DNA from: Amphiscolops sp. MND2022
Taxonomy: Eukaryota
Direction of reading: 5' to 3'
Length of the DNA: 64,000 nt
Assembly (NCBI GenBank): GCA_964187785.1
Contig: OZ076409.1
Span: 53,384,001-53,448,000, forward strand
The notes below the pieces were generated by a model that saw only the letters and a list, made by a program, of their open reading frames with translations, was not told the DNA's origin and made no database searches. Below are positions 1,167 through 51,800 of this stretch, piece after piece; position 1 is the first letter of the stretch; each line of letters begins with the position of its first letter. A program made the translations under genes and the position numbers.

Positions 1167-4100
1167 ATGGAGAGCAACAACAATCTCAAATGGTTTTGTT
1201 TCTCGGGCATGACCGATGACTACTCTATCTGGAGCACTAGGCCTCAAATGAAAGGCCTCTTCGAAACTCTCACTGGAGATAGGCCAACACCAACCCGTCA
1301 ACGAGCCTTTGCAATGATCCAACTGACAAGCAACGAGGTGCTCGCGAAGCCACAGAAGCAGACTACAGGCGGGCGCTCGCGAACATCGAGGAACGCAAGA
1401 ACACCTTCAGGTGCTACCTTGAAATGATTCTCGATACAACCAGCCTGATGTTGATCATGCACGACTGTGTTGACAACAAAGGACTTGGTAATGATCACGA
1501 GGCATGGGGCTTCTGCAAGAGAGGTTCCGATGCAACGAAACGGTGGCTGTTGTCAGTGTTGTAATGAGACACCTGGCCCGCCCAACACTGAACGATAATG
1601 AAGTACTACCCCACTACTTCATCCGGGCCCAAGAGTTGTCAACACGCCTCGGACAAGCTGGGAAACACCAGTCAGAGCTACTACTCAACGCACGCGATGG
1701 TTCTCAACGGCCTGTCTGAACGCTATGAACATTTCGTGGTGCAGAAAAGGTTCGATCCTGCTGGCAGTTTTGTGGAGCTGAGGACAAGGCTCACCAATTA
1801 TGAGGAAAGTCGCCAACAGCGGGAGAAGGTAGTTGACGATGGTTCACACGTGGCAATGATATCCAAGAAAACCAAGCCCAACCCCAAGTCCTCAGGAAAA
1901 CATAACTCCGTGCAAAAGTCGATCTCAGGACAGTCATGCTATTGCTATGGCATGAAAGGACAGTTAACGACAGATTGTCATCATAAGGACAAGATTGAGT
2001 GTACGTACTGCATGATGAAAGACCATTTTGAGAAAGCGTGTATCAAAAAAACTGAAGAGTTCAAAGGAGCTAATCACGGAAACTTAGCGTCAAGTCTTAA
2101 GTCAGGAGACTCAAGCGAGGCAACAGCTAAAGATTTAGTGGTATACTCAGGAAGTACTGACTATGTAATAAAGAACAAGAACTGTTTCAAAAACATAAAG
2201 GCAATAGATACGACTGTTTCCAACCCTGATGGTGGTGACACGAAGGTCTTAGGAACAGGAGAAGTAGGAAGTAGAAGTCCTAGCTAAAGACGTAAACGGA
2301 AAAACTAAGCTTTTAGTTTGCGAAAAGCTGCAGAAAGCTCTCTTTGTGCCAGGATACCGAACAAAATTGATCTCGGTAGCAAGTTTTGTCGATAATGGAC
2401 ACAAAGTTAAACATGAAGATAGAAACAGAGTTTTTTTGCCTCAAAAGCAATGAAAGAATTCCAGTCACTAGAAAAAGAACTCTTTTCTACCTAAGCATGA
2501 TCCCAAATCAAAGAAATCGTTCTGCTAATAGGAAAGATCAAACGAGGTTCCAGTGTGCCACAAACGATTTGGACATGTAAGCTACAGAGACCTAAAACAC
2601 TCTCTGTCGAAAGACCTAAACGAAGTAGATGAGAGTTGTAAAGCTTGCTGCCTAGTTAAAAAAACAAAAAATCCAGTCCCGAAACGAAATGAAAACAAAG
2701 CTTCGAAAGCTCAAGAAAGAGTTGTCAGCGTTGCTGTTCGTCCAAGTACTCCATCGAGTAAAAATGGGTATTGAAACTTTGTTACGTTTATTGACGAATA
2801 CAGTTCGCATGCTTGTGTCAGATTTACTCGACACAAAAGTCAAGTACTAGAAATTTTTAGAGTATGTAGCTGAATGCGGTACGCCCCATATACTACGGTC
2901 TGACAATGCACCTAGTATACAAACAAAAACTTCAAAAACTATTGTAGTTCCAAAAACGTCAAAAAACACAGTTCCTCAAACTCCGAAACAAAATGGTGTC
3001 GCTGAGCGATACTATCGAACCGTTGTTGAGACTGCTCAAATTCTTTTTATTGAATCAAAACTACCTAAATGCCATCGACTAGGAGCTGTGGACACAGCAG
3101 CTTTTGTAAGGTACTTGTAAGAAAGGACAAGAAGAAACAAACCGGATTATCAGGAAATACTATGGATTGAAACAAGCTGCTAAAAGTTGGTACGGTACGA
3201 AGAACTAGCGAACTTTCTTAAACAACAAAATTTTACTCGCAGCGAAAATAGTTACTCTCGGTAAAATTACTCTCAGTTCAGTAAAATTGAAAACAACGGA
3301 ATTTTGTACGTCTTAAGTTGAGTAGATGATCTTGTTGAGTGGATGATCTTGTTGTAATGAGACACCTGGCCCGCCCAACACTGAACGATAATGAAGTACT
3401 ACCCCAATACTTCATCCGGGCCCAAGAGTTGTCAACACGCCTCGGACAAGCTGGGAAACACCAGTCAGAGCTACTACTCAACGCACGCGATGGTTCTCAA
3501 CGGCCTGTCTGAACGCTATGAGCATTTCGTGGTGCAGAAAAGGTTCGATCCTGCTGGCAGTTTTGTGGAGCTGAGGACAAGGCTCACCAATTATGAGGAA
3601 AGTCGCCAACAGCGGGAGAAGGTAGTTGACGATGGTTCACACGTGGCAATGATATCCAAGAAAACCAAGCCCAACCCCAAGTCCTCAGGAAAACATAACT
3701 CCGTGCAAAAGTCGATCTCAGGACAGTCATGCTATTGCTATGGCATGAAAGGACAGTTAACGACAGATTGTCATCATAAGGACAAGATTGAGTGTACGTA
3801 CTGCATGATGAAAGACCATTTTGAGAAAGCGTGTATCAAAAAAACTGAAGAGTTCAAAGGAGCTAATCACGGAAACTTAGCGTCAAGTCTTAAGTCAGGA
3901 GACTCAAGCGAGGCAACAGCTAAAGATTTAGTGGTATACTCAGGAAGTACTGACTATGTAATAAAGAACAAGAACTGTTTCAAAAACATAAAGGCAATAG
4001 ATACGACTGTTTCCAACCCTGATGGTGGTGACACGAAGGTCTTAGGAACAGGAGAAGTAGGAAGTAGAAGTCCTAGCTAAAGACGTAAACGGAAAAACTA

Positions 4101-6118
4101 AGCTTTTAGTTTGCGAAAAGCTGCAGAAAGCTCTCTTTGTGCCAGGATACCGAACAAAATTGATCTCGGTAGCAAGTTTTGTCGATAATGGACACAAAGT
4201 TAAACATGAAGATAGAAACAGAGTTTTTTTTGCCTCAAAAGCAATGAAAGAATTCCAGTCACTAGAAAAAGAACTCTTTTCTACCTAAGCATGATCCCAA
4301 ATCAAAGAAATCGTTCTGCTAATAGGAAAGATCGAACGAGGTTCCAGTGTGCCACAAACGATTTGGACATGTAAGCTACAGAGACCTAAAACACTCTCTG
4401 TCGAAAGACCTAAACGAAGTAGATGAGAGTTGTAAAGCTTGCTGCCTAGTTAAAAAAACAAAAAATCCAGTCCCGAAATGAAATGAAAACAAAGCTTCGA
4501 AAGCTCAAGAAAGAGTAGTCAGCGTTGCTGTTCGTCCAAGTACTCCATCGAGTAAAAATGGGTATTGAAACTTTGTTACGTTTATTGACGAATACAGTTC
4601 GCATGCTTGTGTCAGATTTACTCGACACAAAAGTCAAGTACTAAAAATATTTAAAGAGTATGTAGCTGAATGCGGTACGCCCCATATACTACGGTCTGAC
4701 AATGCACCTAGTATACAAACAAAAACTTCAAAAACTATTGTAGTTCCAAAAACGTCAAAAAACACAGTTCCTCAAACTCTGAAACAAAATGGTGTCGCTG
4801 AGCGATATTATCGAACCGTTGTTGAGACTGCTCAAATTCTTTTTATTGAATCAAAACTACCTAAATGCCATCGACTAGGAGCTGTGGACACAGCAGCTTT
4901 TGTAAGGTACTTGTAAGAAAGGACAAGAAGAAAGAAACCGGATTATCAGGAAATACTATGGATTGAAACAAGCTGCTAAAAGTTGGTACGGTACGAAGAA
5001 CTAGCGAACTTTCTTAAACAACAAAATTTTACTCGCAGCGAAAATAGTTACTCTCGGTAAAATTACTCTCAGTTCAGTAAAATTGAAAACAACGGAATTT
5101 TGTACGTCTTAAGTTGAGTAGATGATCTTGTGATAGCCGATAGCAACAATGAGAGCATAAAACGTTTAAAAAAAGCTCTTGAAGAAAAGTTTAAAATGGT
5201 CGATCGAGGACCCCTCGTATGACTCCTAGGCATGCAAATAAGTGAAGAAATTGACAAAGTAAATCTAGATCGGGAAAAATATATCGAGAGCGTTATAGAA
5301 AATTTGGCATGCAAGATAGCAACCCTTCTAGAACGCCAGCTGAGAATAATCTCAAACTAGTTAAAGCAACTGAGAGTGAGAAATTGGTAGATGAGAAATT
5401 GTATAGGAGTTTAGTAGGGTCTCTACTATACATCGCCAAGCCAACTAGGCCAGACATTGTGTGGATAGTCAATGCGCTCTCACAATTCATGGACAAACCA
5501 ACAAACACTCATCGACTGGCTTGCAAACATGTGCTCCGTTATCTTCGAGGAGCAAAATCACTCAAATTGGTCTACCTGCGAGACAATGACTTTCACCTAC
5601 ACGGAGAAAACGATGCAGAATTGAGCGAAGGTCACGATGACAAGCGATCAACAACGGGCTACTTTTTCAAACTTGGTTTCAGTGGGGGAGCAGTTAGCTT
5701 GCAAACCAAGAAGCAGCAGACTGTGACTTTCTCATCCTGCGAAGCTGAGTAACAGGGCTTGGCAGCAACTATGCAAGAGGCAACCTTCTTGCAATCCATC
5801 CTTTGCGAGATGGTCCATCAGCAGGTGCAGGCAAAACGCATTGGCGAAGACAACGAAAGCTGCATCAAATTGGCAAACAACCATGTGATGCACAAGCGAT
5901 CGAAGCATGTTCACACGAAGTTTCACTTTATCCGTGAAAATGTCGATGACAATGCTGTTGAACTGATCTATAGACCAACAGATCAATTAGCAGCCGATCT
6001 TTTGACAAAAGTACTTCCACAAGTGAAAGTTGGGCAACATCGACGAATTCCATCGGGTCAAATTCAGATTCTTCCTCCAATCTCGGAAAAATCAGGGTGG
6101 GGTGTTGAGGAAATTTGA
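1167..6118 (+). pseudogene. Frameshifted copia gag-pol
   Basis: Degenerate Zn knuckles (CTYCMMKDHFEKAC), protease remnant LVVYSGSTDY, integrase HHCC (CHKRFGH...CKAC), RT YGLKQA and (W>stop)VDDLV, and RT/RNase H motifs YRSLVGSLLY-TRPDI, RSTTGY, SSCEAE, EDNESCI, HKRSKH, ADLLTK. Confidence 0.93.
1557..5131 (+). repeat. Direct tandem duplication of about 1.79 kb inside the copia element (1557-3335 and 3350-5131)
   Basis: Near-identical 229-aa ORFs at 1598 and 3391 (offset 1793); the copies differ by a few SNPs and indels. Confidence 0.95.
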
Positions 6119-15255: not shown

Positions 15256-15485
15256 TTAAGACTTCATCATACAATGCTGAGTCAGTACCATCAATGACCA
15301 AACCATCTTCAATTAGTCTCCATAAATTTCATTACTTTTTATTTTGACTTAAGTAATCGTCATCAGAATATTATCACTTTGATGATATTATCACTCAAAA
15401 CATGATTGTCATCTCAAGCTAAGCGGCAAATTGCAACAAAACAAACGTTTTCCTATTAAACTTTCAAAAATTGAATCATTCATGA

Positions 15486-17669
15486 TGTCGCAGGCTGCCT
15501 CCTGCAAATTACCCAATCACAGTGCAGTATAGCTAGTATTAGCATTATCTCTCGGCAATACATTATTTGGCCGGTTATGGCCGCTTGCCTTAATCTAACT
15601 ACTATGCTCGTGAACGCTGGTCCAATGGCCGGTTCCGGCCTATTTAGCTTTTATCAAGTAATCTGTGCTATTTAATCAGTAGTGCTGTGTATTTTCTTGG
15701 AAAGTACTTGAAGCTGTCTTAATACGTCAGATGCCATGATTAAAAGTGTTAGAAGAAGTATTGGTAATTGTTTTAATTATAGTTGCTATTGATAAAATCC
15801 CGTACCAGATACGTCACTTGAGCACGCGGCCTTGTCCAATCAAATTACTCCATTTGCTACGCAGTTAATACTTCCATTCATTAATGGCCGAATAAGGCCT
15901 GTGGACATAACTTCGCTACTTTTAATAAATATCCAGTCAGACGGCCGGTTCCGGCCATTTCACAAAAAGCGCAATTGTGATGCTAATTATTAACCAGGAT
16001 TCATGTGCTTGTACTCTTAGGCTGAATAACCCCTCTAGTGCAGTATTAACTAACTACACCACAGACTTAGCTCTTTCAGACGGTTAAGGCCGTTTGACCA
16101 GTATTTTAATAATGTTTACTTAATACGAGGCAATTAGCCTATTCAGGCCAGATTGTGTAAAGCGCTGTACACATTTTTAATTGATTGGCCGTATATGGCC
16201 ACTTGACGTTATATTAGATTGGTAATGCAGGACAAAAAGAAAATGGCCGGTTTAGGCCATTTTGCTTATTATTATTAGAGATGCTTTTAAGCATGAATGA
16301 GTTTGTTTTACAGTCATGTAAGATTATATTTATATACTTGAAGATGTTAATGAGCTTTTTAAATCCAATTAGTGCAATAATAACGACCAGTAGTAGCAAT
16401 CCGAATACCCGTCACCTGTCCTATTCCGGCCTTCACTATTGGCCAGCTCCCAAGTCCAATGGCCGTATTCGGCCATATTGCTATATTATGTTCATTTCTA
16501 TTGCATGAAACTGTGTCTTTATTTTGTTGATTCTACGCACGTGTGTAGGCACGTGCCGCTAAATAGTTTACATTCCTCTCACTGTAAACAATTTGAAAGT
16601 ATTAGTTTTGATGTTTGGTCAAAGTGTTGTTTGCCTAATATAATAAGGCTAAATTCCTCCGCTCCCCTTTGATGATAGTATTTGCAGTTAGAAAATGCAT
16701 TTGAGTGCATTCCATATTTTATGTAAACTTTAAATGATTTTGCTGCGAATGAATTAGGTATGAATTCCCTTTGGCCCTAACGGGACAAATTCCTAAGTGC
16801 TTTGATGCAGTTGACGCCGCTAAAAATGAATGAATGTTAGTGGTCACCCGCCATGGTCATGTGCCCTTTATGGAATTTGTAAGTAGATTGTCATGCAAGG
16901 AATGTGAGTGTCACCCTCTCAGGGGTATATATATATTGGTATTTTTCCGAGAGGGACACAATTGTATTTTGCTTCTCCAAGTTTAGTTTGATATACCTGT
17001 TTACGATACAACGTACAAAATCCTATTTTCCGAATAAAACCTAATTCACTGTTTTACCTCGGACTTTCTTTCTAATGCCTACAACAAGAAAGCAGAAGAA
17101 AACCAGAAAATCTAGAGGAGTTGAGATAATTTCGGACATTGAAAATGTAGATATGATGCTCGGAGAAAACCATTTCAGTAGAAATGAGAGAGATGAAAGC
17201 CTCAGTAGTAATCAAACCAGAAGACCTGAAAGTACTTTTGGTGATCAATTTGAAAATAATGATGAAAACAGGTACTTAAATTCAAGAAATGACGGACTTA
17301 GTCCAAATGCCGATTACGGCCAAAACTCTGCTGGAGGTAATTCTAGTGCTGAGATAAATAGACTGTCGAGTGAATTGAATTCCCGAATATCTAGAGAGAT
17401 GGACGAGATGATGAATAGTGTCAGTGTTCAGATACAGAGAGCCATAAATGATGCAATTAGCAATCAGGTTTTACCCCAGATTCAAAATGCCATTGTGGCC
17501 GGATCGGGACATTTGACCAGAGAAAGATGGAACGTTCCGGCCGAGAGACCGGAAGGATATTCCGAAGTTCTGCGAAACTCAGATTCCAGAGATAACTCGA
17601 GAAGTAAGCCATTTATGGACTGTCAGAAAGACGGTCCAACTACATCCACAAACGCGCGTGCTTACGACA
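15486..17669 (+). repeat. 5' LTR (2184 bp)
   Basis: Direct repeat of 21393-23576; TATA-like GTATATATATA near 16925, AATAAA near 17033, gag ATG at 17075. Confidence 0.95.
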
Positions 17670-18793
17670 TGGTGACAGGAGAAAACGAATCTCCAACTGA
17701 TATTCCTGAGTTTCTCACGGGACGAATGCCATCAAGAAGTCATCTCAACCGATCTCATGATGACCTCAATCCCCTGCTCGACACGACGATCCCAGCACAA
17801 GAAAGGACCGTTACGGCCCCGGAACAAGATCCTATCAACAGGCTAGCTGATGTCTTGACCAGTATGCAGAACCGTCCAACAGCCCAACAACCCACTATCC
17901 GCCCAGTCAACTCAAACACTATGACTTTTGACGGCAAAAGCAAGAAGTTCGGGCTGTTCGTATATCTATTCCACACGATGATCAAGTTGATGTCCGAGCA
18001 GATGAAAATTAATCATTTTCATTCGCTTTTGAGAAAAAACGCTCTGCAAACATTCCGAAACATTAGCACAGCTAACAGACAAACTCTCGAGGACGTATTA
18101 GTCATCTTCGGACGGAAATACGTCAAACCCGAATCTCAAACAACTACCAAACATAAATGGCACCGTCTGGTATTTGATCCGAATACGACAAAACTACCAG
18201 ATTTTCTTGAAGAGCTGAATCAAGGCGCAGAAAAAGCATTCGGAGACAATGCCCAAAAGATGATTGACAGTCTCCTATACGCAAAATTTCCGCCCAAGCA
18301 AAAAAGATCAGTCAATATGGCCAGATTAGAGAACGCCTCCTATGACGAAATTGTCGCTCATCTTGAGAGAGAATTGGAGCTAAACGCCCTTGAAGAATCT
18401 GATGACCTACCAATGGCATCAATGACGTCTTCAGCCACAAAAACAAAAACTGTTCCATCAAACGTCCAAATGAGTGACATTACCTGCAACTATTGCAAAG
18501 AAAAGGGCCACATGGTCAAAGACTGTGAAAAGCGCAAAAAGAAGAAGGAGAAAGATGCCCAACAAGGCAAGCCCACACAGAAAAAGGTTTATCCTAAATG
18601 TGAGACATGTGGCAAGACAAACCACCCTGAGGAGAGATGCTGGCAAGGTGCTGGTGCGCATCTCAAGCCCAAACGCACCAGGCCAGAGGACTCGTCGGAC
18701 AGCGATCCTGACCCCAAATCCTCAAAACCCCATCACAAGCCAACATCATCCAGTTCCCAATCCTCATCAAGCAAAGATGAGTCAAAAAACTAG
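17075..18793 (+). CDS. gag: Gag-like protein, 572 aa, intact
   Basis: Long open frame with a capsid-like helical middle and two CX2CX4HX4C knuckles (CNYCKEKGHMVKDC, CETCGKTNHPEERC). Confidence 0.9.
   Translation: MPTTRKQKKTRKSRGVEIISDIENVDMMLGENHFSRNERDESLSSNQTRRPESTFGDQFENNDENRYLNSRNDGLSPNADYGQNSAGGNSSAEINRLSSELNSRISREMDEMMNSVSVQIQRAINDAISNQVLPQIQNAIVAGSGHLTRERWNVPAERPEGYSEVLRNSDSRDNSRSKPFMDCQKDGPTTSTNARAYDMVTGENESPTDIPEFLTGRMPSRSHLNRSHDDLNPLLDTTIPAQERTVTAPEQDPINRLADVLTSMQNRPTAQQPTIRPVNSNTMTFDGKSKKFGLFVYLFHTMIKLMSEQMKINHFHSLLRKNALQTFRNISTANRQTLEDVLVIFGRKYVKPESQTTTKHKWHRLVFDPNTTKLPDFLEELNQGAEKAFGDNAQKMIDSLLYAKFPPKQKRSVNMARLENASYDEIVAHLERELELNALEESDDLPMASMTSSATKTKTVPSNVQMSDITCNYCKEKGHMVKDCEKRKKKKEKDAQQGKPTQKKVYPKCETCGKTNHPEERCWQGAGAHLKPKRTRPEDSSDSDPDPKSSKPHHKPTSSSSQSSSSKDESKN
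17670..17681 (+). promoter_or_regulatory. Primer binding site, lying inside the gag frame
   Basis: TGGTGACAGGAG directly after the LTR end; one mismatch from the complement of a typical animal tRNA-Leu 3' end (TGGTGTCAGGAG). Confidence 0.7.
18784..18790 (+). promoter_or_regulatory. -1 programmed ribosomal frameshift slippery site A_AAA_AAC
   Basis: In-register X_XXY_YYZ heptamer immediately before the gag TAG; the -1 frame is open from 18790 to 20034. Confidence 0.8.
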
Positions 18794-20034
18794 CTTCGCC
18801 ACCACTCCAATACAACCAACTAGTCTCTGTCCGTCAATACATCAAATCGGACCCTCAAACCAAAAACTTTCATAATTACCAACAACAATTGATGGGCTAT
18901 CCTTCTGTTGTCTGGCAGCAGCAAATTGAAAAAGCTATCATTATTACCTATAATAATACCCATTTGTTCCAGAAATCAATTCCTGTTTGGGATCCTGACT
19001 ACACAACTACCTTTACTACCCGATTCAGGCCCATTCCCTTAGTAGACGACTACAACCCTACATACATCGACCCAGATTATGGAAGAGATCACTACTGGGA
19101 CACTGAGATCTGCAACCAGGATCTATTGCAATTTCAATATGTTCTAGACGATATTGAACAATGCAACAAGACAGTCCACGAGAACCCTCCAATTACCCAT
19201 AACAAGAAAACCAGAGCGCTAAACCATCCGGTGTTTCCAAACCCCTTGGGAACCGAGAATATCGAAAACTGTGCAGAATCAATTCCACAATCGCTACTAG
19301 ACGAGAGACAGTTCCAGAATGTACTCATTACCAAAAATGGTGAACCAGACTGTATACCCCTGTCAACCAACAGTAACCTTAAACCTCAGATCTTGCACCG
19401 AGTTCGCCTCAAAAAGTTTGTCCCCAATCAACCGCTTGAGGACATTTTCCGAGAAGAGCGATTACTGCCGGACGAAGAAATTGTCATTCCGCAGGACGAT
19501 TTGTACACAGTTACGTGGGAAACAAACTTTGGTGAACAGCTAGCTACACGAGGCAACGAGCCTATTCCGGCTAGCTTGCCGAATGAAGAAAGAACGAGTA
19601 CGGCAAAAGCGAACGCAGATAACGCAAGCGAGAATGAAGCGGATTACATAATCACGACTGATTGTCCGAATGACGTCAACGATACAGAGCACAGTCGAGA
19701 TAAACGACTGAAAAGTGACGTCAGCAATGCAAATGAAGATAGTGAAGCTACTAGAAATGAAAACTCTGATTGGCCGGATTCGGCCGTTTACCACAATAAT
19801 CCAGAAAAATCTTTGCCGGATCTGTCCGAAAGACAAGAAAACAATGCAAATGTTTCAGAACGAAATTCTGCTAATGAAAGCGATGCACAAAAATCTCCAA
19901 AAAAGGGGGATGATATTATCGTGCCCGAAATATCGCAAAATGATGAAGGGAATGAAAATCTGAGTCCTAGAGGTGGAAGATATAATTTGAGACCTAATCC
20001 TAATCCAAACTACTCAGAAGACTTCAGATACTAG
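18790..20034 (+). CDS. Internally deleted pol frame (pre-protease region fused in frame to the integrase C-terminal tail)
   Basis: No PR, RT, RH or IN catalytic motifs. QILHRVRLKKF resembles the end of the gypsy integrase C-terminal module, followed by an acidic tract and an RYNLRP tail. Junction near 19383. Confidence 0.75.
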   Translation, partial: LASPPLQYNQLVSVRQYIKSDPQTKNFHNYQQQLMGYPSVVWQQQIEKAIIITYNNTHLFQKSIPVWDPDYTTTFTTRFRPIPLVDDYNPTYIDPDYGRDHYWDTEICNQDLLQFQYVLDDIEQCNKTVHENPPITHNKKTRALNHPVFPNPLGTENIENCAESIPQSLLDERQFQNVLITKNGEPDCIPLSTNSNLKPQILHRVRLKKFVPNQPLEDIFREERLLPDEEIVIPQDDLYTVTWETNFGEQLATRGNEPIPASLPNEERTSTAKANADNASENEADYIITTDCPNDVNDTEHSRDKRLKSDVSNANEDSEATRNENSDWPDSAVYHNNPEKSLPDLSERQENNANVSERNSANESDAQKSPKKGDDIIVPEISQNDEGNENLSPRGGRYNLRPNPNPNYSEDFRY

Positions 20035-21392
20035 GAAAAGATTAATAAGCGTCCAAGAAGGAACACTGCTCTCTTTTCTTCTTTTCCTTTTCATTTTTAA
20101 AGTCCTTCCTCCCTCTGCTTCTACCTCTCCTTCTACTTCTCTTCCTACTGCATCTACCCTTCTTCCTTCTTCGTCCTTTGTCTCTTGGTCGCCATGAATG
20201 ATTCAGCGACCTGTGACCCTTCTAGCAATTGAGCCTCTGCATGGAGTCTGACCTTTTCGTCAGCGTAAGCTGTAATATCAACACTGTCAGTACTACTTGG
20301 GGACCTCTCTACTCTAAGAGGAGGAAACAGGGGCGGTGAAAACACAACAGCATAACCTGTACCCACGGGTGAATTGGGATCTGGTGTTCGAGTAGTCTCT
20401 TTGTTCTGATTCTATAAACAGAAAGAGATGAAATTTGGCGGTTAGCTTCCTTGAAAGAAATCCATTTTGCCGCGTCAGAAACCTTTCGAAAGTGTTCTAA
20501 AAATTTGAATGAAACGTGTTATCACGTGTTTAGTGATGGAAGCAGGAAGCATTTTGTGAACAAATTTTAACCCTGATCAAGTTAAATTAGTTCAAAATAA
20601 AAATCCAGATCAACTTGTGTTTGAAGACATCCTGCAGTGATGGAAACTCCTTCCGGGTAACCGTCCTCATTCGGCTGGTGAAGTTGGGGAAAGTGGCCGA
20701 GCTCGGCTGAAAAGAGGAAGATGCTCCGGAATACTCCGAGGAAAATGTAGTCAACAACAAAGTTGAAGTCGGAGAGAGATGGACGTCGTAAAGATGAATT
20801 CAAATGAACAAAAATCCAAATAAAAAAGGAATTAGAATAATGATAATCAAAATTGAAAAGTTGGAGTTCGTGGCTGAAGAGATTACCGGGTTAATATTTT
20901 ATGGCTATTTACGAATTTAAAACTGTGCATGGAGTCTGCCAGCGAAATGTACAGAAGATTGCTCATTATTTACAAATTAGTTAGTTAGAAGCCGATTATG
21001 GCCATTTACCTTGTTCCGTTTTGCCGTTTTGTTCCGTTGCCCTTATTACCATTTAGTTAGAATTTCCGCATTCTGGATTATTTTAGTTATTATTTTCACC
21101 ATTTTACTATCCAATTTCCATTTTATCGAAAGTCAATTTTGATTGGCTAAAACGATTTTAAGAGAAACCTTTGGTGCGTGCCGTTAATTACCTCCAAGCG
21201 ACTCGTTAATTACCCACTTGAGACGAGTGTATTTGATATTAACATCTTGAGCATTGTTCACACCTATTCTGATGACGGGAGTGATAAGGAGATCAACACC
21301 AAGAGGTGAGCCGGCCTACGTCACAGCAATTATGAAGGAAGCTTATTTGAATGGACTTAATGCAGGGTCGTTTTTATTTATTCCACCCGCAG

Positions 21393-23576
21393 TGTCGCAG
21401 GCTGCCTCCTGCAAATTACCCAATCACAGTGCAGTATAGCTAGTATTAGCATTATCTCTCGGCAATACATTATTTGGCCGGTTATGGCCGCTTGCCTTAA
21501 TCTAACTACTATGCTCGTGAACGCTGGTCCAATGGCCGGTTCCGGCCTATTTAGCTTTTATCAAGTAATCTGTGCTATTTAATCAGTAGTGCTGTGTATT
21601 TTCTTGGAAAGTACTTGAAGCTGTCTTAATACGTCAGATGCCATGATTAAAAGTGTTAGAAGAAGTATTGGTAATTGTTTTAATTATAGTTGCTATTGAT
21701 AAAATCCCGTACCAGATACGTCACTTGAGCACGCGGCCTTGTCCAATCAAATTACTCCATTTGCTACGCAGTTAATACTTCCATTCATTAATGGCCGAAT
21801 AAGGCCTGTGGACATAACTTCGCTACTTTTAATAAATATCCAGTCAGACGGCCGGTTCCGGCCATTTCACAAAAAGCGCAATTGTGATGCTAATTATTAA
21901 CCAGGATTCATGTGCTTGTACTCTTAGGCTGAATAACCCCTCTAGTGCAGTATTAACTAACTACACCACAGACTTAGCTCTTTCAGACGGTTAAGGCCGT
22001 TTGACCAGTATTTTAATAATGTTTACTTAATACGAGGCAATTAGCCTATTCAGGCCAGATTGTGTAAAGCGCTGTACACATTTTTAATTGATTGGCCGTA
22101 TATGGCCACTTGACGTTATATTAGATTGGTAATGCAGGACAAAAAGAAAATGGCCGGTTTAGGCCATTTTGCTTATTATTATTAGAGATGCTTTTAAGCA
22201 TGAATGAGTTTGTTTTACAGTCATGTAAGATTATATTTATATACTTGAAGATGTTAATGAGCTTTTTAAATCCAATTAGTGCAATAATAACGACCAGTAG
22301 TAGCAATCCGAATACCCGTCACCTGTCCTATTCCGGCCTTCACTATTGGCCAGCTCCCAAGTCCAATGGCCGTATTCGGCCATATTGCTATATTATGTTC
22401 ATTTCTATTGCATGAAACTGTGTCTTTATTTTGTTGATTCTACGCACGTGTGTAGGCACGTGCCGCTAAATAGTTTACATTCCTCTCACTGTAAACAATT
22501 TGAAAGTATTAGTTTTGATGTTTGGTCAAAGTGTTGTTTGCCTAATATAATAAGGCTAAATTCCTCCGCTCCCCTTTGATGATAGTATTTGCAGTTAGAA
22601 AATGCATTTGAGTGCATTCCATATTTTATGTAAACTTTAAATGATTTTGCTGCGAATGAATTAGGTATGAATTCCCTTTGGCCCTAACGGGACAAATTCC
22701 TAAGTGCTTTGATGCAGTTGACGCCGCTAAAAATGAATGAATGTTAGTGGTCACCCGCCATGGTCATGTGCCCTTTATGGAATTTGTAAGTAGATTGTCA
22801 TGCAAGGAATGTGAGTGTCACCCTCTCAGGGGTATATATATATTGGTATTTTTCCGAGAGGGACACAATTGTATTTTGCTTCTCCAAGTTTAGTTTGATA
22901 TACCTGTTTACGATACAACGTACAAAATCCTATTTTCCGAATAAAACCTAATTCACTGTTTTACCTCGGACTTTCTTTCTAATGCCTACAACAAGAAAGC
23001 AGAAGAAAACCAGAAAATCTAGAGGAGTTGAGATAATTTCGGACATTGAAAATGTAGATATGATGCTCGGAGAAAACCATTTCAGTAGAAATGAGAGAGA
23101 TGAAAGCCTCAGTAGTAATCAAACCAGAAGACCTGAAAGTACTTTTGGTGATCAATTTGAAAATAATGATGAAAACAGGTACTTAAATTCAAGAAATGAC
23201 GGACTTAGTCCAAATGCCGATTACGGCCAAAACTCTGCTGGAGGTAATTCTAGTGCTGAGATAAATAGACTGTCGAGTGAATTGAATTCCCGAATATCTA
23301 GAGAGATGGACGAGATGATGAATAGTGTCAGTGTTCAGATACAGAGAGCCATAAATGATGCAATTAGCAATCAGGTTTTACCCCAGATTCAAAATGCCAT
23401 TGTGGCCGGATCGGGACATTTGACCAGAGAAAGATGGAACGTTCCGGCCGAGAGACCGGAAGGATATTCCGAAGTTCTGCGAAACTCAGATTCCAGAGAT
23501 AACTCGAGAAGTAAGCCATTTATGGACTGTCAGAAAGACGGTCCAACTACATCCACAAACGCGCGTGCTTACGACA
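21393..23576 (+). repeat. 3' LTR (2184 bp)
   Basis: Copy of 15486-17669, followed by TSD CATGA. Confidence 0.95.
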
Positions 23577-23581
23577 CATGA
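22982..23581 (+). CDS. Gag N-terminal fragment (199 aa) carried by the 3' LTR
   Basis: Identical to gag residues 1-198; the stop TGA is supplied by the target-site duplication. Expression is unknown. Confidence 0.5.
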   Translation: MPTTRKQKKTRKSRGVEIISDIENVDMMLGENHFSRNERDESLSSNQTRRPESTFGDQFENNDENRYLNSRNDGLSPNADYGQNSAGGNSSAEINRLSSELNSRISREMDEMMNSVSVQIQRAINDAISNQVLPQIQNAIVAGSGHLTRERWNVPAERPEGYSEVLRNSDSRDNSRSKPFMDCQKDGPTTSTNARAYDT

Positions 23582-24096
23582 TATCTCTATCACTGTACAA
23601 AACTCATGTCAGTTTCCGCTGTTTTCGCGTCTCCGTAAAAATAAGCTTCTTAAAATGAGTATTGATTTGTGCGTAATCAACGAATTCATCATCAAAAGTG
23701 TGCGCCATGTCATTAAAAATTTTCTCTTCGAGCAAGGTTGCATAGCGAAATATTTGACAAGCGAGGCTAAAACCAAACCATTGATATCACCTGATTGAAG
23801 TCGATAAACTTGATTCAACTTGAAGTTTATAAATTCGATTATGTTGGAAAGATGGTTATAACCTATAGGCACCTGAACGCAATACATTTCATGTTTTTTT
23901 TTCAGATGCTCAACCTTGAACAAATTGATCAACTTCCCCATAATGATTGTCCTTCGGCGCATTTAGGAAAAACTTGATCTTCGACAGATAGTTTCTATTC
24001 CTATCCGTTAGGTATAATTCGTTGAGCGAGCTTTGAGTTCATTGCATAATGCTTCCAACTTTCTTATTCCACCTGTAACTTTGTTATTACTTCCAG

Positions 24097-24349
24097 TGAG
24101 TCGAGGTCCAGTGCAGTTAGCGCAGTTCACTCTGGAGTCAGTGGAGCTGACCAACACGACCTTTTCCTTTTCCACTGGGTCATTCATCCAGCTGCAGGTC
24201 AAGTTCAACCTCAAGAGAGACCTTCTCTTTTTCATTCTACAGAGCTACGTGCCTTCCACCTTCATCGTCATGTGCTCATACGTCGCCTTCTGGATAAACA
24301 GAGATGGAATCCCTGGAAGGGCTTGTCTCTCCATAACCACAGTTCTCAG
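24097..24349 (+). CDS. Exon of anion-type Cys-loop ligand-gated channel subunit (gene 1): loop C, M1, first half of M2
   Basis: CAG acceptor and AG|GTAGG donor; LAQF...TGSFIQLQVKFNLKR...ILQSYVPSTFIVMCSYVAFWINRDGIPGRACLSITTVL matches the GABA-A/GlyR pattern. Confidence 0.93.
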
Positions 24350-24471
24350 GTAGGCCCATTTTAAACATGCCTTTCCATGCATGACTACGGCAAAGCCTGG
24401 ATCAGATCAATTGAATTCAAAGCGACGTCAATTGGATTGAAACCTCTTTGAACCTCAAACTATTCAAGAAT

Positions 24472-28500: not shown

Positions 28501-31500
28501 ATTGTTCGATATCGTTGTCCATAAACGGCCACTACGCATTATTTTGTCACCAAGTTTTTCAAAGCATTGATTCCTTGATGGACGTCGTAAAGTTTTTCAA
28601 CACTTGTTTTCGGAATGTAATTGCTATAGAAACTCTTGGTCCATTATATATCAAGTCATTTTGTACTGTTAATGCATTTGAAACATTCATAAAAGATTTC
28701 TCCATTTTGGTACAGTTTTTCCAATTACCGGTTTGGAATCGGTTGATCATCCGTTTTGTGAACTCATTCGATTGCAACTCTTTCCGTTACTTCTCGGCAT
28801 CAACCACGGGTTTCTCAAATGTAGCCATTGCTACCGCAACTAAGTCGTCTTCATCGTCTTTGAACCGTAAGCGTGACATTGCATCGGCATGACCAACATC
28901 TTGACCGGGATTGTATTGTACATCATTGTCATAGGCCATCAGGGTTATTGCCCCTCGCGCAAGTCTCGCTGATAAAACTTTCGGTATCTGGTTGCTCGGA
29001 TTGAAGATATATTGTAGTGGCTTGTGATCTGTTCTCAAAGTGAACTTCCTCCCCAATAGAAATTGTCGAAGTCGTGTCACTGCGAACACTACAGCAAGCG
29101 CTTTCCGTTCAATGTTGCTGTATTTCTGTTCTGCCGATGTCAAGTTTCGAGATATGTAGATAACCGGGTGATCATTCTGCGTAAATACAGCACCAATTGT
29201 TTTTTCGGATGCATCCGTTGTGAGAGTCACTTCTTTATCCAATGAGTACGGTTGTACCAATGGTTCACTTGTAAGCTCATCTACCAGTGACTGGAATGCC
29301 CTTTGACATTCATCGGTCCACTTGAAAGGTTTATCTTTTTGCCGGAGTTCATTGTAACACCGCGTCTTGGCCGCATAGTTCGGAATCATTTGCCCAAAGT
29401 AGTTGAAATGTCCGATAAAAGCTTCAATTTCTTTGACATCCTTCGGTGGCTGCAGTTGAAGAAGTTTTTGAACGTGCTTCTGTTCTGGCTTTACTCCTTC
29501 CGATGAAATTTCATAGCCCAAAAAGAATAACGTTGTCGAGAATGATACGCACTTGTCTTCATTTACGGTGAAGTTCTTTGCTGCCAGCCGTTCTTTGACC
29601 GCATTGTATCTTTTCCGGAGTTCGGCCTCGGTTACACCGAACAACAAGATATCGTCTTGATTTGCGACGCAACCATCCAGTTCTTTGAGCACTTCCTCGA
29701 TAGCTTGTTGGAAAATCGCCGCTGCATTTTTCAATCCTTGTTGTAACCGGGTGACTCGAAATAGGCCTCGGGTTGTATTCACCGTACACACATATTGCGA
29801 TTTTTCATCAAGTGGAAATTGCCAATAAGCATTAGATTGATCAATTTTCGCAAAGAATTTAGCGCCTGACACTTTTGAGAAAATGGTTTCAATACAAGAG
29901 AGGGGGTAGGTTTCGGTACTAATTTTATCAATTACATGTACGGGGAACAATTGTCTACACCACCGGCTTCAACCGGTTTAAGAATTCCCAACAACAGTAA
30001 TTCATCAATGGTTTTATTGACTTTCCGTTCAAGTGGCAACGGTACCTTCCGTGCCGCGCAAAACATTGGTCTAGCATCGGGTTTCAATTTAATGGAAGCT
30101 TTAGCACCTTTCACTGTTGGTAGCTTTTCGGATGCTTCTGCTTTGAAGCACTGGTTAATGGACTCTTTGCTATTATTTATTATATCACGTCCCAATAAAC
30201 CAAAATTTCTATCAGCATCAACAACAGCAATCTTTACATTAAGCTCTTTGTTATTATAAAACACTGTTGAGAAGAAAGCACCGAGATATTTTATTTTATG
30301 TTTGTCATATGTTTCAATTCCCGTGTTCTTTTCTTCAAGTTTCGGTTGTCCAATCTGCTTCCACAGCTTCTTTGAAATCGGCGTCAGTGATGCTCCAGTG
30401 TCTTTCATTGATGTTATTTCTTTACCATTCACTTTTATTTTCTCCATTGTACCATTCTTGATGTAGTCGGTGTGCCCAATAAAATACGAATAATCGGAGG
30501 AACTGTCATTGTTTTTTTCGATATTGGCTTCTTCACGAACAAAATGATTCGTTTGTTTCTTCATACGACACATTTTTGCGAAATGGTTCGGCTTCTTGCA
30601 GTTGTTGCATCTTTTGCCGAAGGCCGGTCAACTTCTTGGTTCATGCTTCGTTCCGCATTTCGGGCATTCTTTGGCTTTGTTGTGGATGCTGGTCAAAATT
30701 TTGCCATTTCCGATTGTCTTCTTTCGTAATTGACCGTTCCGCGCAACGGAAACTGTTTCATTCGGTTCGTTCTGTTTGTTCACGAATTATACGGTTTGTT
30801 CACGCTGCTGAATAACCAACAAAATGTCGTCTATTGTAGCGTCCGGGTTTTGTTGAAGATGTTCCAACAATTTTAAATTGTGTTCGAAATTTAGTAATCC
30901 AGCAATAAAGCGTAACCGTATCATGTAAGCTTCCGGATCAGCGATAGTTTTCAAATTACTGAACTCACAATATTGTGCTGCTTCCTGCAGACGTGCCAGA
31001 AAATCTCGTGATGATTCTCCATTCCTCTGGGTAATAGCCACGAATTTTGTTTGTTCGGCAATACCAAGTCGTTTTCTCGGCTGCAGGCAATTTTCCAGTA
31101 CAGGTTCAATTTCATTGAAAGCCATTGTTTCCACTTTTTTCGGTGCAACAAGCGGTTTGAACTTCATAAGACTTTTCACACCGCAACGGAAAAGAAATTG
31201 ATCCGTTACTTGTAAATCGGCCGGTGTTGTTCCAGCTGCCAGTACAACTGCTTTATTTTCGGCTCGACATCGCGCTTTGAATGCGTCTATCCAGGCTAGA
31301 GCAGCTTCGGGTTCGTGCAGATTGAGTTACTTTTTTGTCTCGGTTGCTTGCATTTCAATATTTCTACCGAACGAACTGAATATAATCTTCTCCCTTTCGG
31401 TTGAAATGAAATAACAGTAAGAAATCTTCGGTTTCTTAAGCAATCATTTTTCAAATTTATAGGAATTTCGTTGGTCTGGACACTTTTGTCGTAGAGTGGT

Positions 31501-45400: not shown

Positions 45401-48400
45401 AAACGGGTAAATACAAAGGGAAAAGAACTATCTAACAAGTCGGACACTCACCCAAAGCGAAACACGGTAAAACGACACAAAAAAAACTCTTTGGACCTTC
45501 AAATTCAACCTTTCAATTTTCCTTTTTCTAAAACAGTTCCCCCTAAAACCCCCCACATGATCTTTTGAGATTCATTACCAGGTTTAGCAACAGAGAAAAT
45601 GTCTAATAGTAAGGAAGAGAACGATCGAAACCTCCGAAACGTTGAGACGTCAAGGCTTTCTAACAGCTAGTGACAAGTAATATCATTAGTTGTTTCACCT
45701 GATACCAACCTTTTCAATCAAACAGAGTATTGAAAGTACATGGACGACGAAGTTACTCAAACGTCATGTGATGCTTTCGTTAAAAATAATTTCATCCAAA
45801 ATAAATGCGATGTCTTTGGCTGGTTAATACCAAATTAATAATACCTTGGATACTATATTTGAAATCAGGAATTCTAAGAATACTCGCAAATCGTATAAGG
45901 AATCCTATTTTTAATAAAATTTCAAGCGCATTAGGATTAATAATACAAAGTATCAAAAATACTTCTTTTGGTTATTAGTAAAACTTATAAAATGGGGGAG
46001 AAGTTTTTGAGTCCTTAGTATACAGTTTATAAGGAATCCTGAAAACAGTTAGATATAAGGAAACTTGATACATTTCCCATGTATTAACAAGCGGAAAAAG
46101 TATCAGTAAAACTTATACTTCAATGCAAATTGGGTTATAAGGAATACTTATGCATTTTAGACACGTAAATTTACGCGCACTTTGAAAATTGTGTCTTGTA
46201 ATGATCGAAGTTTTATTACTCCGAATCGCGAGATTTTGATCCAGGCACCTCACTGCTGTGTTTTTCTGTTACGTGGACACAGGTTACGCTCGCATACCAA
46301 TTTTCGGGTAGCTAGGACGCCTGGAAGGCGAGTTTGACAAGCATTTGTGAATTTCACGACCAGTCAATTTTTCAGTGAACATTGTTAAGTGACCGTAACA
46401 TCCTCAGAGTCAATGTTGGCGCAATCAGAGGTTTATTCCCCACGATTCTGCTACTTTAGTATACGTTATGAAGTTTTCAGGTCGCTAGCAACGCTAGAAG
46501 TGATTTTCATTTTCCACGGAGGTGCATGTTGACGAAAAAATTGTTGATTTTGTAAATTTTTGAGACAAATCGCACTTTTTGTCAGTGTACGTTCAGGTGA
46601 GGGCCCAAACAACCTCAATGGTATATCAGGCACCCTCAGCACGTCCTGTTGAATTTTTTTGATTAGTGCTAAACCGACCCTAAGATCTCGGGTCTCTGAG
46701 AAAAAAGTCTACGAGACAGAGGTGAAAAACAAAAATCGAAATTCGCCTTCTGGCTGCTATCAAAGTCACCTAGGTGCAAATTATTCGGTGTGAACATGCA
46801 TGCTTGGTGCCTTGTGTACCCTGTGGGTGCTGGAGTTTGTTTATAGGTTTTTTTAGAGGTTCAAACTTCGAACGCAGTGCGTCTCAAAACAGAACAACAA
46901 GTACAGTAGTGACTATCATAGTTGTAAAAGAACGCTTTTTCCGACGTACTACGATCGTAAGGCAAGAAATCACTTCAAACTTAAGCTCCTTCCTCCTACT
47001 TGCCCCAAGGCCTATTCCCAGTCCCTGAACACTTTTACGTCCTCACTTGTGCTCCCCAGAAACAGGGCAGCATGAGTGACAATCGGACTTTTCATACAAT
47101 CTAGCATCTGTAGCCGCGCGGGCTTCTCAAAAAACTAGTGTTCGTTGCTCGATTCCTGCCTAAAGTGTACCTCGGTCCTCGATACCACGGTTGTGCGAAC
47201 CATGTCGATGTGGAAACACCGGATAAGAGATTGGCCTTACCTCACAAGAAAAATCAACACCTAGCATGATGAAACACCTGGAACTTCGAAGCTCTGAGAA
47301 CAGCCATGCTTTTAAATCTCCTATGATTGTCTTGGCGTTTGGTTTTAATGCCCAAGACTGACTTCATGATCTATCATGCCTGATTTTTGATTTCTATTGG
47401 ATCTGGTCTATCATCGCTGTCGACATAATCATCGTCTTGAGAAGCAGTTTACTTCCATCTTACATATACACTGGTGTTTATACTACCTAGACAATACCTT
47501 TATCTGAGCGTAAACTGCTTGCACAAAAGACTGAATGGGTCCTCACTTTAAGTGATATTTTGAGTTTTTGTGCTCTGTTTTCCCATTGGTGCTATTTATT
47601 GTGCAGTTTCTGTTGGCCATGAACTACGAGACTTTTGCAAGACCACAGCTGTTACTTTTACATTTCTCTTTTCAAGTGCTATCGTGCATTTTGGGAAACC
47701 TAACTCATTAGGTCGCCCCCGGTCAGTGCCAAACCCGTTGTAATGATTGCTTTTTATACTTATACAGATGCGGTAACACAAAGTGCTAGTAATTTTGGTG
47801 CGAAATTAAAAGTTCGAAAACGTTTTGAATACAATGCTGAGTGTCTAAAGTTGCTAACTCGATTCAAGTGCAAAACCCATTGTTGGTGTGGAATCCAAGG
47901 AAGCCTGCTAGGCTGGCAAAAACTCATGTTTTTGGGCAGTAACATGTTTTTGGGCAGTAACATTTTTGGGCAGTAACTTCTTTTTGGGCAGCAACTTTTG
48001 TTCGGGTTCCTGAAATGGCATTTTGCTGAAACAGTACCCCTGGATGATGACAAACAAGACGTGAACGTCCACTCTCGTTTGTCCAGGACGACAAACTACG
48101 GCCCGGGGAGGATGTAACGTCAGGCAGTCGATGTTACAAAATTCCGATGAATAACTCGAAATGTGCGATATCAAATAAGCACATTCAAGAGGGCCAACCC
48201 GGCAGGTACAAAAATCTTACAAAAACCAAAAAACGTTAAAACAGACCGCCCCATAGTCCCCGACACCCGAAGGCACCCGGAAAAGGCTGAAAAGAGAGCG
48301 AAACCCAGTGTTGTGTCATATCATCTAGGAAAATGTCGGAAGAGACCCTCCAGAATCGAGGTGCAACCTGTCAGTGGATCTTTGAAAGAACTCCGGAACC

Positions 48401-48829
48401 TTCTTGAAGATGCCCGAGGAACTCTTAGTAGTTAATTTCATTGTTATTATTGTTTTTCGTAGGTTTTCGATGAAATTGGATCTAGCAGATCCCAATTTTG
48501 CTGATTTTAGATCTACTTCTGCAAATATAATATACTTTTGCTCAACACCGTTTTTGGACCTCGGAAGTATGTAGGAAGTCACGGGAACATGTTAGGAACC
48601 TTAGAATTTGTTTTTACAGGCTTGTGGAACGTGTCCGGACTTTGAGAGTGCTGTCGCGCCGCCTCAGAGCTCTAACAGAGGAGCCTCCTTAGACGTCAGA
48701 AAAGTCCCCCTAGGAGACCATTTTGGGAGACAAACTAATGTCTAGGGATGTAGTAAGACAACGGTATCCTGTTTATCACCCTACGCATTGTCCCACTTCC
48801 TAGATGTGCGCCGCTTGCCGGACGTTACA
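42474..48829 (+). mobile_element. Non-coding (decayed or LARD-like) LTR element, possibly BEL/Pao-related
   Basis: LTRs of about 716 bp, TGTAA(C/A)GTC...GACGTTACA, at 42474-43189 and 48113-48829. PBS-like TGGCGACCAC at about 43206; GGCCCGGGGAGGA before the 3' LTR; reconstructable TSD TTTCT; no recognisable ORF. Confidence 0.75.
44877..46203. mobile_element. Non-autonomous CACTA/EnSpm-like element nested in the LTR element
   Basis: 21-bp TIR CATTACAAGACACAA(C/T)TTTCA, AT dinucleotide on both flanks, AGGATTTCTTATAC repeats on the left and inverted TATAAGGAATCCT repeats on the right. Confidence 0.82.
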
Positions 48830-51800
48830 TTTCTTTTTTTAAGACCAACGAAGTGACAGATTTTATAAGCTTTATAAGCTGGCTTCCACTAAGTGCCAGA
48901 CTAATGTAACTTCTTCTGCTTCTAAATTTTGAAGGGTTTTTTGAGGTCTGCCAAGAAGAAGGACGTGGGTTCGAGACTCGCCCTTGACCAGAAATTTTTT
49001 TGTGCATGTTATTACGGCTTTGTGAGACTTTTTTTCGCAAATTTTTTTAATGCCTCCAAAGGGTCCCCCTCCATTTTTTTTTCTATTTTGCAAAAAAATG
49101 AATGTTCAAAAATTTCCAAAGGCTCCCCTTTTACATTTTTTGGCACTGTGCAACTTACCGGCGACTTTTAAAAATATTCAAAAAAATTTCGAAAAAAATT
49201 TCAGATTTTTTTTCAATTTTTTCCTCAGAACTTACTTACAGGTACTATAGAAGAGAATATTTGACACTTTGAAGTCCTTTTGCTTTTTTGAGCCTTAGAT
49301 ATGGCGCCGACTTGGGCCGTTCCCGGCTTGTTTTCTTTATCAGTTTAGAATTTCGGTATTGCAACTTGTCGACACCTTCGACTTTCTTGTCATTTGACCT
49401 GAATTTGTCCGACAGCGACTGCGGTAATGTTCGATGTGGTTGGCATCTGTCATTTCAGATAGTCCAATAATTGCGGTGCGTACTCCCAACAAAAAATTAT
49501 TGGGCCAACGTGCGCATTGATTCATCAAGTTCGTCAAAAGTCTGTTTTTCTATTTTTCAGAGAAATTGTCATGACTAATTTTGCCAAGATGATGGAAAGG
49601 ACAACCATTTCAAACAATTTCCGTAATGAGTTCCTCAGCGAATGCATCTTATTCTCTGATAATTCCTTGGTAAAATGTTCATTAACGATGGAACTGGGTA
49701 ATAATTTCCCTCGAATGGACTGCTAAAATTAGTACATCCATCACCAGTGCGTGCTCTCAGGAGAACGTGGATACTTTTTGTAAATTATTCTGACATTCTC
49801 AAGCAATTGAATGCACGTCTAATCTTGCTAAAACCGGTGCTGCAAAGTTATCCAACCAATTTTATGATTAGCAACCTCGCTAGGATCACTTTTAATCAAG
49901 AAGGAAATTGATATGCACTTGAGGGAAGTACAGACGATTTTATTGAAACCAATAATTCCTCTGCTGCTATATATACTACCAAAAGCGAGGACAACTTTCC
50001 ATCGAAATTGTGAAATTGGTTTTCATTTATGAGAAGATTAATATATTTCTGCTTATCCTGAAATAATGTACAAGTAGCTTTGCTAATTCAGATCAACTGC
50101 AATTTTTCAATTCTTTCAAAGAAGTAATGAATGTTGATCGCATTTGGTAGCGTTGGAAACGCCCTGTCTCTTGATACCGGTAAACGCTCCTCCCAATTCT
50201 AGGAAGCCTGCTAGGCTGGCAAAAACTCATGTTTTTGGGCAGTAACATGTTTTTGGGCAGTAACTTTTTTGGGCAGTAACTTCTTTTTGGGCAGCAACTT
50301 TTGTTCGGGTTCCTGAAATGGCATTTTGCTGAAACAGTACCCCTGGATGATGACAAACAAGACGTGAACGTCCACTCTCGTTTGTCCAGGACGACAAACT
50401 ACGGCCCGGGGAGGATGTAACGTCAGGCAGTCGATGTTACAAAATTCCGATGAATAACTCGAAATGTGCGATATCAAATAAGCACATTCAAGAGGGCCAA
50501 CCCGGCAGGTACAAAAATCTTACAAAAACCAAAAAACGTTAAAACAGACCGCCCCATAGTCCCCGACACCCGAAGGCACCCGGAAAAGGCTGAAAAGAGA
50601 GCGAAACCCAGTGTTGTGTCATATCATCTAGGAAAATGTCGGAAGAGACCCTCCAGAATCGAGGTGCAACCTGTCAGTGGATCTTTGAAAGAACTCCGGA
50701 ACCTTCTTGAAGATGCCCGAGGAACTCTTAGTAGTTAATTTCATTGTTATTATTGTTTTTCGTAGGTTTTCGATGAAATTGGATCTAGCAGATCCCAATT
50801 TTGCTGATTTTAGATCTACTTCTGCAAATATAATATACTTTTGCTCAACACCGTTTTTGGACCTCGGAAGTATGTAGGAAGTCACGGGAACATGTTAGGA
50901 ACCTTAGAATTTGTTTTTACAGGCTTGTGGAACGTGTCCGGACTTTGAGAGTGCTGTCGCGCCGCCTCAGAGCTCTAACAGAGGAGCCTCCTTAGACGTC
51001 AGAAAAGTCCCCCTAGGAGACCATTTTGGGAGACAAACTAATGTCTAGGGATGTAGTAAGACAACGGTATCCTGTTTATCACCCTACGCATTGTCCCACT
51101 TCCTAGATGTGCGCCGCTTGCCGGACGTTACATTTCTTTTTTTAAGACCAACGAAGTGACAGATTTTATAAGCTTTATAAGCTGGCTTCCACTAAGTGCC
51201 AGACTAATGTAACTTCTTCTGCTTCTAAATTTTGGAGGGTTTTTTGAGGTCTGCCAAGAAGAAGGACGTGGGTTCGAGACTCGCCCTTGACCAGAAATTT
51301 TTTTGTGCATGTTATTACGGCTTTGTGAGACTTTTTTTCGCAAATTTTTTTAATGCCTCCAAAGGGTCCCCCTCCATTTTTTTTTCTATTTTGCAAAAAA
51401 ATGAATGTTCAAAAATTTCCAAAGGCTCCCCTTTTACATTTTTTGGCACTGTGCAACTTACCGGCGACTTTTAAAAATATTCAAAAAAATTTCGAAAAAA
51501 ATTTCAGATTTTTTTTCAATTTTTTCCTCAGAACTTACTTACAGGTACTATAGAAGAGAATATTTGACACTTTGAAGTCCTTTTGCTTTTTTGAGCCTTA
51601 GATATGGCGCCGACTTGGGCCGTTCCCGGCTTGTTTTCTTTATCAGTTTAGAATTTCGGTATTGCAACTTGTCGACACCTTCGACTTTCTTGTCATTTGA
51701 CCTGAATTTGTCCGACAGCGACTGCGGTAATGTTCGATGTGGTTGGCATCTGTCATTTCAGATAGTCCAATAATTGCGGTGCGTACTCCCAACAAAAAAT

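Follow-up and report, generated by a model that had tools for sequence, protein, structure and literature searches.

The element in our window (the whole 64,000-nt stretch of DNA analysed) probably belongs to a young Ty3/gypsy family of 48 copies that lacks enzymes of its own, keeps its Gag under selection, carries a relic stub of Pol, and exchanges host mRNA cargo serially by using a spliced leader (SL) as a handle. Within this reading, the common deletion, the copy number, the TSDs, the contrast in selection between gag and stub, and the mosaic tracts were observed directly. With less assurance we lean toward a further step, in which the SL serves as a universal strand-transfer site and turns the element into a self-renewing cassette vector for 5' coding parts, making and scattering in-frame chimeras such as an XRN2-PNPase frame of 604 aa. 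Such a vector would provide a countable record of the host mRNAs that enter retrotransposon particles, and the same would be predicted in other SL-using animals.

A young family that has lost its enzymes

The preliminary description of this DNA had proposed a recent insertion, which is borne out by an LTR pair of 2,184 bp each with 0 differences and by CATGA on either side (Table 1); TG...CA LTRs, a PBS and a short TSD are all present. The Pfam match of gag (zf-CCHC, E 0.003) lies below the curated cutoff, and the pre-protease (pre-PR) section of the Pol frame gave no informative Pfam match, and in the ESM Atlas only scores of 0.75-0.76 without families. The window copy has also lost ~4.3 kb from the antisense-gene region of the relatives, along with most of a 3' sense ORF. 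The 20 nt before the 3' LTR are pyrimidine-rich in the window copy and in all four full-length elements compared; ending in CAG, this tract looks like a splice acceptor.

Table 1. Features of the element (window positions, except the last row, which gives positions in two loci holding full-length relatives)
Feature	Position	Strand	Remarks
Whole element	15486-23576		8,091 bp
Left TSD	15481..15485	.	CATGA
5' LTR	15486..17669	+	2,184 bp, TGTC...GACA; final 592 nt are the first 197 Gag codons
gag	17078..18793	+	571 aa, two CCHC knuckles; starts within the LTR, frame runs through the PBS
Primer-binding site TGGTGACAGGAG	17670..17681	+	Inside the gag frame; common to full-length relatives
Slippery heptamer A_AAA_AAC	18784..18790	+	gag TAG (18791-18793) directly after
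Pre-protease section of Pol frame	18790..19383	+	~198 aa; 10 codons fewer than 13 family copies
Deletion junction	19380..19383	+	TAAA, Lys codon microhomology; 3,933 nt gone
Integrase C-terminal tail	19384..20034	+	216 aa, in frame; amino-acid constraint lost
Remnant: start of the relatives' antisense gene	20401..20633	-	Relatives have the gene between pol and the 3' LTR
Cargo docking site	21118..21133	+	Joint follows GAAAG; empty in window copy; 10 family copies have SL and host mRNA
Pyrimidine-rich stretch	21373..21392	+	Ends CCCGCAG; abuts the 3' LTR, where a canonical polypurine tract is expected
3' LTR	21393..23576	+	Same sequence as 5' LTR
Right TSD	23577..23581	.	CATGA
Full-length relatives' extra ORFs	L108:567-3196, L045:8766-9965, L108:4113-5030		

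Elsewhere in the window, an exon of a Cys-loop ligand-gated ion channel (PF02932, E 6e-7) lies at 24018-24353, on the same strand and 440 nt downstream of the element, which may sit in an intron of that channel gene. The window also holds an RT-RNase H fragment from another gypsy element (28787-29968, minus strand) and near-identical tandem duplications at 1557-4948 and 47892-51641, with periods of ~1,794 and 2,303 bp.

The enzymes had been said to be removed by an in-frame deletion, and the window sequence does depart from its full-length relatives at the junction. Relative to five of the six relatives compared, 3,933 nt (1,311 codons) are gone, and relative to the sixth 3,873 nt; the loss spans Pol residues ~212-1521 and with them PR, RT and RNase H, followed in IN by the zinc finger, the rve core and the greater part of the Integrase_p58_C match. 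The relatives at L045 and L051 have these domains in the order PR-RT-RH-IN. The ends are joined at a Lys AAA codon found on both sides, and from this microhomology the in-frame joining follows by mechanism. The junction peptide, given as NLK followed by PQILHR, held in part: the junction is shared by the family, but the Pro appears private to the window copy, the residue after the junction being Thr in three other aligned family copies, while the other best matches begin at residue 2.

Searching with a junction-spanning peptide recovered 44 copies, below which lay a clean gap in score; 150 of the 8,969 candidates were scored. Four further copies, which derive from this junction, have an extra in-frame deletion of 513 nt (171 codons) that takes out the junction and the start of the conserved tail, so that the family totals 48, and the copy count excludes a one-off deletion. 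Divergence between paired LTRs has a median of 0.14% and a maximum of 0.73%, and is zero in 9 of 43 copies (some of them partial); an exact 5-bp TSD flanks 34 of the 35 copies with both ends available. The proposal of a non-autonomous lineage thus stands, on 48 dispersed enzyme-less copies with TSDs of their own and on our finding, among 91 LTR starts, no full-length element that carries this LTR. The 43 non-family PPT-LTR matches resolved to 42 loci, namely 29 copies of a sister clade, 4 members of the family itself and 9 further loci whose LTRs are dissimilar or show weak similarity, and five LTR starts left unexplained were four solo LTRs and one fragment.

Full-length Ty3/gypsy relatives are abundant and young in the same genome, where many have Pol frames of 1,736-1,738 aa. 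In the families examined, coding sequence is only 73-81% identical to that of the element and the LTRs for the most part do not resemble its own, yet the LTR termini and PBS are common to both. These relatives (16 kb) also have antisense ORFs of 675, 181 and 400 aa and a sense ORF of ~300 aa after pol; Pfam gave no match for the four extra ORFs of one full-length relative. The sister clade (29 copies; L190-L229, L264-L265) is itself defective, with an LTR ~92% identical to that of the family: it keeps PR-RT remnants with many nested deletions, has a different tail junction, and lacks an integrase core in all 26 copies examined for Pol. One of its subfamilies combines a 354-aa Gag with a shared frameshift near Pol residue 200. 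The copy at L090 has a 1.08-kb gag tract that is 80% identical to the window copy and 88% identical to a full-length type, which indicates co-packaging, and full-length relatives packaged in the same particles are the likely source of the family's PR, RT and IN. By a hand count, chromosomes C11-C13 (18% of chromosome length) hold none of the 47 placed family copies vs. 21 of 102 full-length matches (P = 2e-4, post hoc); C12 has one solo LTR of the family type.

The frameshift signal, and tests for selection on gag and the Pol stub

The heptamer AAAAAAC is placed as had been described, in X_XXY_YYZ register with gag and just before its TAG, and the -1 frame indeed stays open to a TAG at 20032-20034, for a fusion of 571 + 414 = 985 aa. 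Nine of ten relatives examined have the heptamer (the tenth had no pattern match). In the relatives, the 32 codons ahead of the first Met of the -1 frame show 235 synonymous vs. 93 non-synonymous pairwise differences, and third-position variation dominates upstream of that Met (21 columns vs. 9 and 5). Conservation of the heptamer together with mainly third-position variation before the first Met supports, on comparative grounds, a -1 frameshift in this clade that is real in kind. No strong hairpin stood out downstream of the heptamer in three pseudoknot-free folds (z of -1.55, -0.29 and -0.99).

An open frame alone is weak evidence of function at this age: private substitutions amount to ~0.25% per family copy, and in simulations a frame that has drifted neutrally by 1% is still free of stops 59% of the time. 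Both frames are whole in 24 of the 48 copies, as expected because the copies are young. We therefore turned to the pattern of substitutions, splitting family variants into private ones (mostly post-insertion) and shared ones (passed through replication) and setting linked tracts apart; pN/pS was computed on 47 of the 48 copies, excluding L090 because its imported gag tract distorted the pooled value. Variant counts are small and recombination breaks their independence. Isolated shared variants in gag numbered N27/S20 (pN/pS 0.46, P = 0.008), upholding the earlier claim that the family supplies its own Gag, here found under purifying selection, whereas those in the Pol stub numbered N28/S4 (pN/pS 2.4; Fisher P = 0.006 for the contrast). 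The suggested dN/dS check gave a divided answer, constraint on gag and almost none on the amino acids of the stub. Private variants had pN/pS of 0.7-1.3. In full-length families omega is 0.07 for gag, 0.13 for the pre-PR part, and 0.08 and 0.04 for two conserved tail segments; in the family the conserved tail segments have N13/S2, vs. the omega of 0.08 in relatives (P = 1e-8). An antisense remnant tried as neutral control (shared pN/pS 0.76) was set aside, as the reading frame used may be wrong.

The preliminary description had seen in the Gag-deltaPol fusion a maintained decoy that takes Pol places in helper particles, like a defective-interfering element. The half of the copies with both frames whole and the conserved slip signal would suit such a decoy, but we now consider it very improbable and largely refuted, since the tail lacks amino-acid constraint (pN/pS of 1 or more) and drifts, the window copy changes three junction residues that are invariant in all six relatives, the sub-lineage of four copies has lost 171 codons with the junction and start of the conserved tail, seven copies have a TAA at the slip site, and the full-length relatives have remained abundant and young. 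On these sequence comparisons, the frameshifted stub is likely a drifting relic and no decoy. Two of the slip-site stops, in L095 and L098, are shared by mutual nearest neighbours (6 differences vs. 24 or more); the TAA occurs in the sister clade too, and could be a recurrent RT error at the A-run.

A different role for the frame is unlikely in our judgement, though less so than the decoy: the sequence of the stub would be free, while translating it, or just keeping it open, benefits the RNA in cis, a role reported for the Gag-Pol fusion of mouse IAP 1-delta-1 (PMC6466679). The Pol frame has three large shared indels (3,933, 30 and 513 nt), each of which preserves it, and no family copies share a stop within the stub, whereas in the 3' non-coding sequence three of the four shared indels are frameshifting; moreover, neutral drift of ~5% would keep the frame free of stops just 9% of the time, and linked divergent haplotype tracts in the pre-PR part have N17/S29 (pN/pS 0.20). 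No outside source was found for these tracts, the best 40 matches all being family members, and the pre-PR part may have stayed selected after the deletion. Set against this are the slip-site stops, two of them probably inherited, the Lys codon microhomology by which the main deletion is in frame in any case, and the amplification of sister-clade copies despite their shared frameshift. Weak selection for an open frame, or a slight benefit from it, is possible.

Under the preferred reading, a relic stub behind a selected Gag, the slip site would survive because of its overlap with the end of gag and the youth of the family, and Gag would act in cis, taking the RNA that encodes it into mixed particles. 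When a defective family is young, its Gag-deltaPol frame can then be intact without being a selected decoy, and the family would be an animal example of a non-autonomous element with Gag selected in cis.

Host mRNA cargo behind a spliced leader

Nine of the 44 junction copies have long 3' regions filled with foreign sequence, and in a genome-wide pattern search precisely 10 elements share the joint that corresponds to window position 21132; the window copy is of the empty type, without cargo. In every cargo copy the joint is followed by one 30-nt sequence and then by host coding sequence. The 30-mer matches the published SL of another acoel, Symsagittifera roscoffensis (PMC9911081); it occurs 1,709 times in the genome and precedes a GTAAGT donor in a tandem SL-gene array. 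According to the same source, ~30% of host genes are trans-spliced and their mRNAs share the SL.

The leading cargo genes, named from our reading of Pfam matches, are a TRPM-type SLOG gene (3 copies), CSE1L (2), XRN2, an AMP-binding enzyme (acyl-CoA synthetase-like, ACSL), eIF2A, WDR36 and a Na-nucleoside transporter (CNT); behind them lie nested remnants of two more genes, EF2 in 6 copies and one of RNase PH (PNPase-like) type. Ten copies thus hold 5' mRNA parts of seven genes and nested remnants of two, nine genes in all. At the exact position of the SL joint each of the seven parent genes shows a pyrimidine tract with an AG, and introns are absent from the cargo of the six multi-exon parents (XRN2, PNPase, ACSL, eIF2A, WDR36 and TRPM), while in the CSE1L and CNT parents the copied part is intronless. 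The captured XRN2 and PNPase pieces form one open frame of 604 aa with both Pfam domains (L069:1225-3036, minus strand).

At the 3' joints, microhomology of 8-10 nt with the replaced sequence was found in seven of the nine examined, where the chance of at least 8 nt is 1.5e-5 per joint; the WDR36 joint was compared with a variant form of the element. The EF2 end joint has local homology too, and the XRN2/PNPase joint at most 2 nt on its visible side. All 10 cargo copies have perfect TSDs and have kept both LTRs. A base 12 nt upstream of the SL marks all 10 SL copies and none of 35 others, and this linked marker shows a single entry of the SL, which was followed in that lineage by at least eight further captures. 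None of the 38 SL-less copies has host cargo.

These observations suggest the following course of events. In one sub-lineage, RT would have copied a host mRNA once, up to its capped end, and the copied end would have rejoined the element through a 2-nt AG overlap, fixing a 32-nt SL at 21132. From then on, minus-strand synthesis on element RNA would hop at 8-10 nt of microhomology to a co-packaged trans-spliced mRNA, RT would run off the mRNA 5' end at the SL, and the new SL copy would anneal to the SL of the element RNA, much as in strong-stop transfer, giving a viable copy with both LTRs. Each round would swap out the front of the old cargo and leave a 3' remnant, of which the nested remnants are the visible result. 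Such strand transfer explains why the front cargo always extends to the first base of the mRNA, why older cargo persists only as 3' remnants, and the slipped 6-nt duplication within the SL of L081.

The SL might instead be a mere passenger, if each cargo was captured separately at a hot spot or was brought in at the DNA level by conversion from a processed pseudogene. Every full-length copy of a trans-spliced mRNA ends in the SL, 427 dispersed SL copies in the genome are not followed by G, and the site itself provides the AG overlap. We regard this as quite improbable nonetheless, because 10 of 10 copies share one junction and one linked marker, the nested EF2 and PNPase remnants bespeak serial descent, SL-less copies are uniformly without host cargo, and searches with seven cargoes returned mainly elements and parent genes. 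These searches also matched EF2 paralogs, a second, partial CNT-like locus and, more weakly, two sequences of the EF2 region.

The tandem SL RNA gene array lies at 16.23-16.42 Mb of C1 in genome G000 (L136-L154), partly in 904-bp units, and comprises the leader, the GTAAGT donor, two hairpins and a U-rich Sm-like site. Among 30 sampled of the 427 dispersed SL copies none was an LTR cargo leader; 28 of the 30 have AG before them, and this suggests that the leader itself begins with AG. Most of the sampled copies (L275-L304) head repeated cysteine-rich ORFs, which are likely LINE ORF1 in full-length insertions of trans-spliced RNA.

An SL handle would explain repeated capture of host mRNA by some LTR elements: the hard step, return from the mRNA to the element, would be solved by a sequence present in the mRNAs of ~30% of host genes (PMC9911081). 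With nine host genes represented among ten young copies the rate of capture is high, and a trans-splicing animal becomes a system in which exon shuffling and gene duplication through RNA can be tested directly.

Comparison with known systems

Gag-keeping non-autonomous elements, LTR-mediated mRNA capture and dinoflagellate SL relics are already known; the proposed SL-anchored exchange of cargo within a family would be a variation on these, and the stub itself is ordinary. Like mouse IAP 1-delta-1, the element is non-autonomous and still amplifies after losing an internal segment, with a Gag-Pol fusion ORF left behind; the IAP fusion, reported to act in cis, was created by the deletion (PMC6466679), whereas in our element Gag is complete, fusion depends on a -1 slip, and no selection is seen on the amino acids of the stub. 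Plant TR-GAG elements (PMC4350172) are similar in having LTRs, a PBS and a TSD, in being enzyme-less and mobile, and in Gag being the only domain-bearing ORF. They are described as shorter than 4 kb with a single ORF, whereas the window element is 8,091 bp with a second, -1 frame, and it differs further in its animal host, its slip site, its 414-codon Pol stub and a Gag start within a 2.2-kb LTR; it works like a TR-GAG but is not classed as one.

LTR-mediated retroposition, including maize Bs1, likewise places intronless mRNA pieces in non-autonomous LTR elements, with microsimilarity at joints, multi-gene chimeras and further amplification (PMC5131818). There, however, both joints are described as chance microsimilarities at arbitrary places, whereas in this family every 5' joint consists of the host SL, whose site in the element is fixed, and cargo is exchanged serially; 'spliced leader' and 'trans-splic' have 0 occurrences in that source, and our search of the open-access literature returned no case of an SL fixed in an LTR element as an exchange site. 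The leader itself has a likeness in the dinoflagellate SL-relic retrogenes (PMC12014239), in which an SL is also copied into DNA before retrocopied mRNA through repeated cycles; as described there, that SL is a tag on free retrogenes and no recombination site inside an LTR element.
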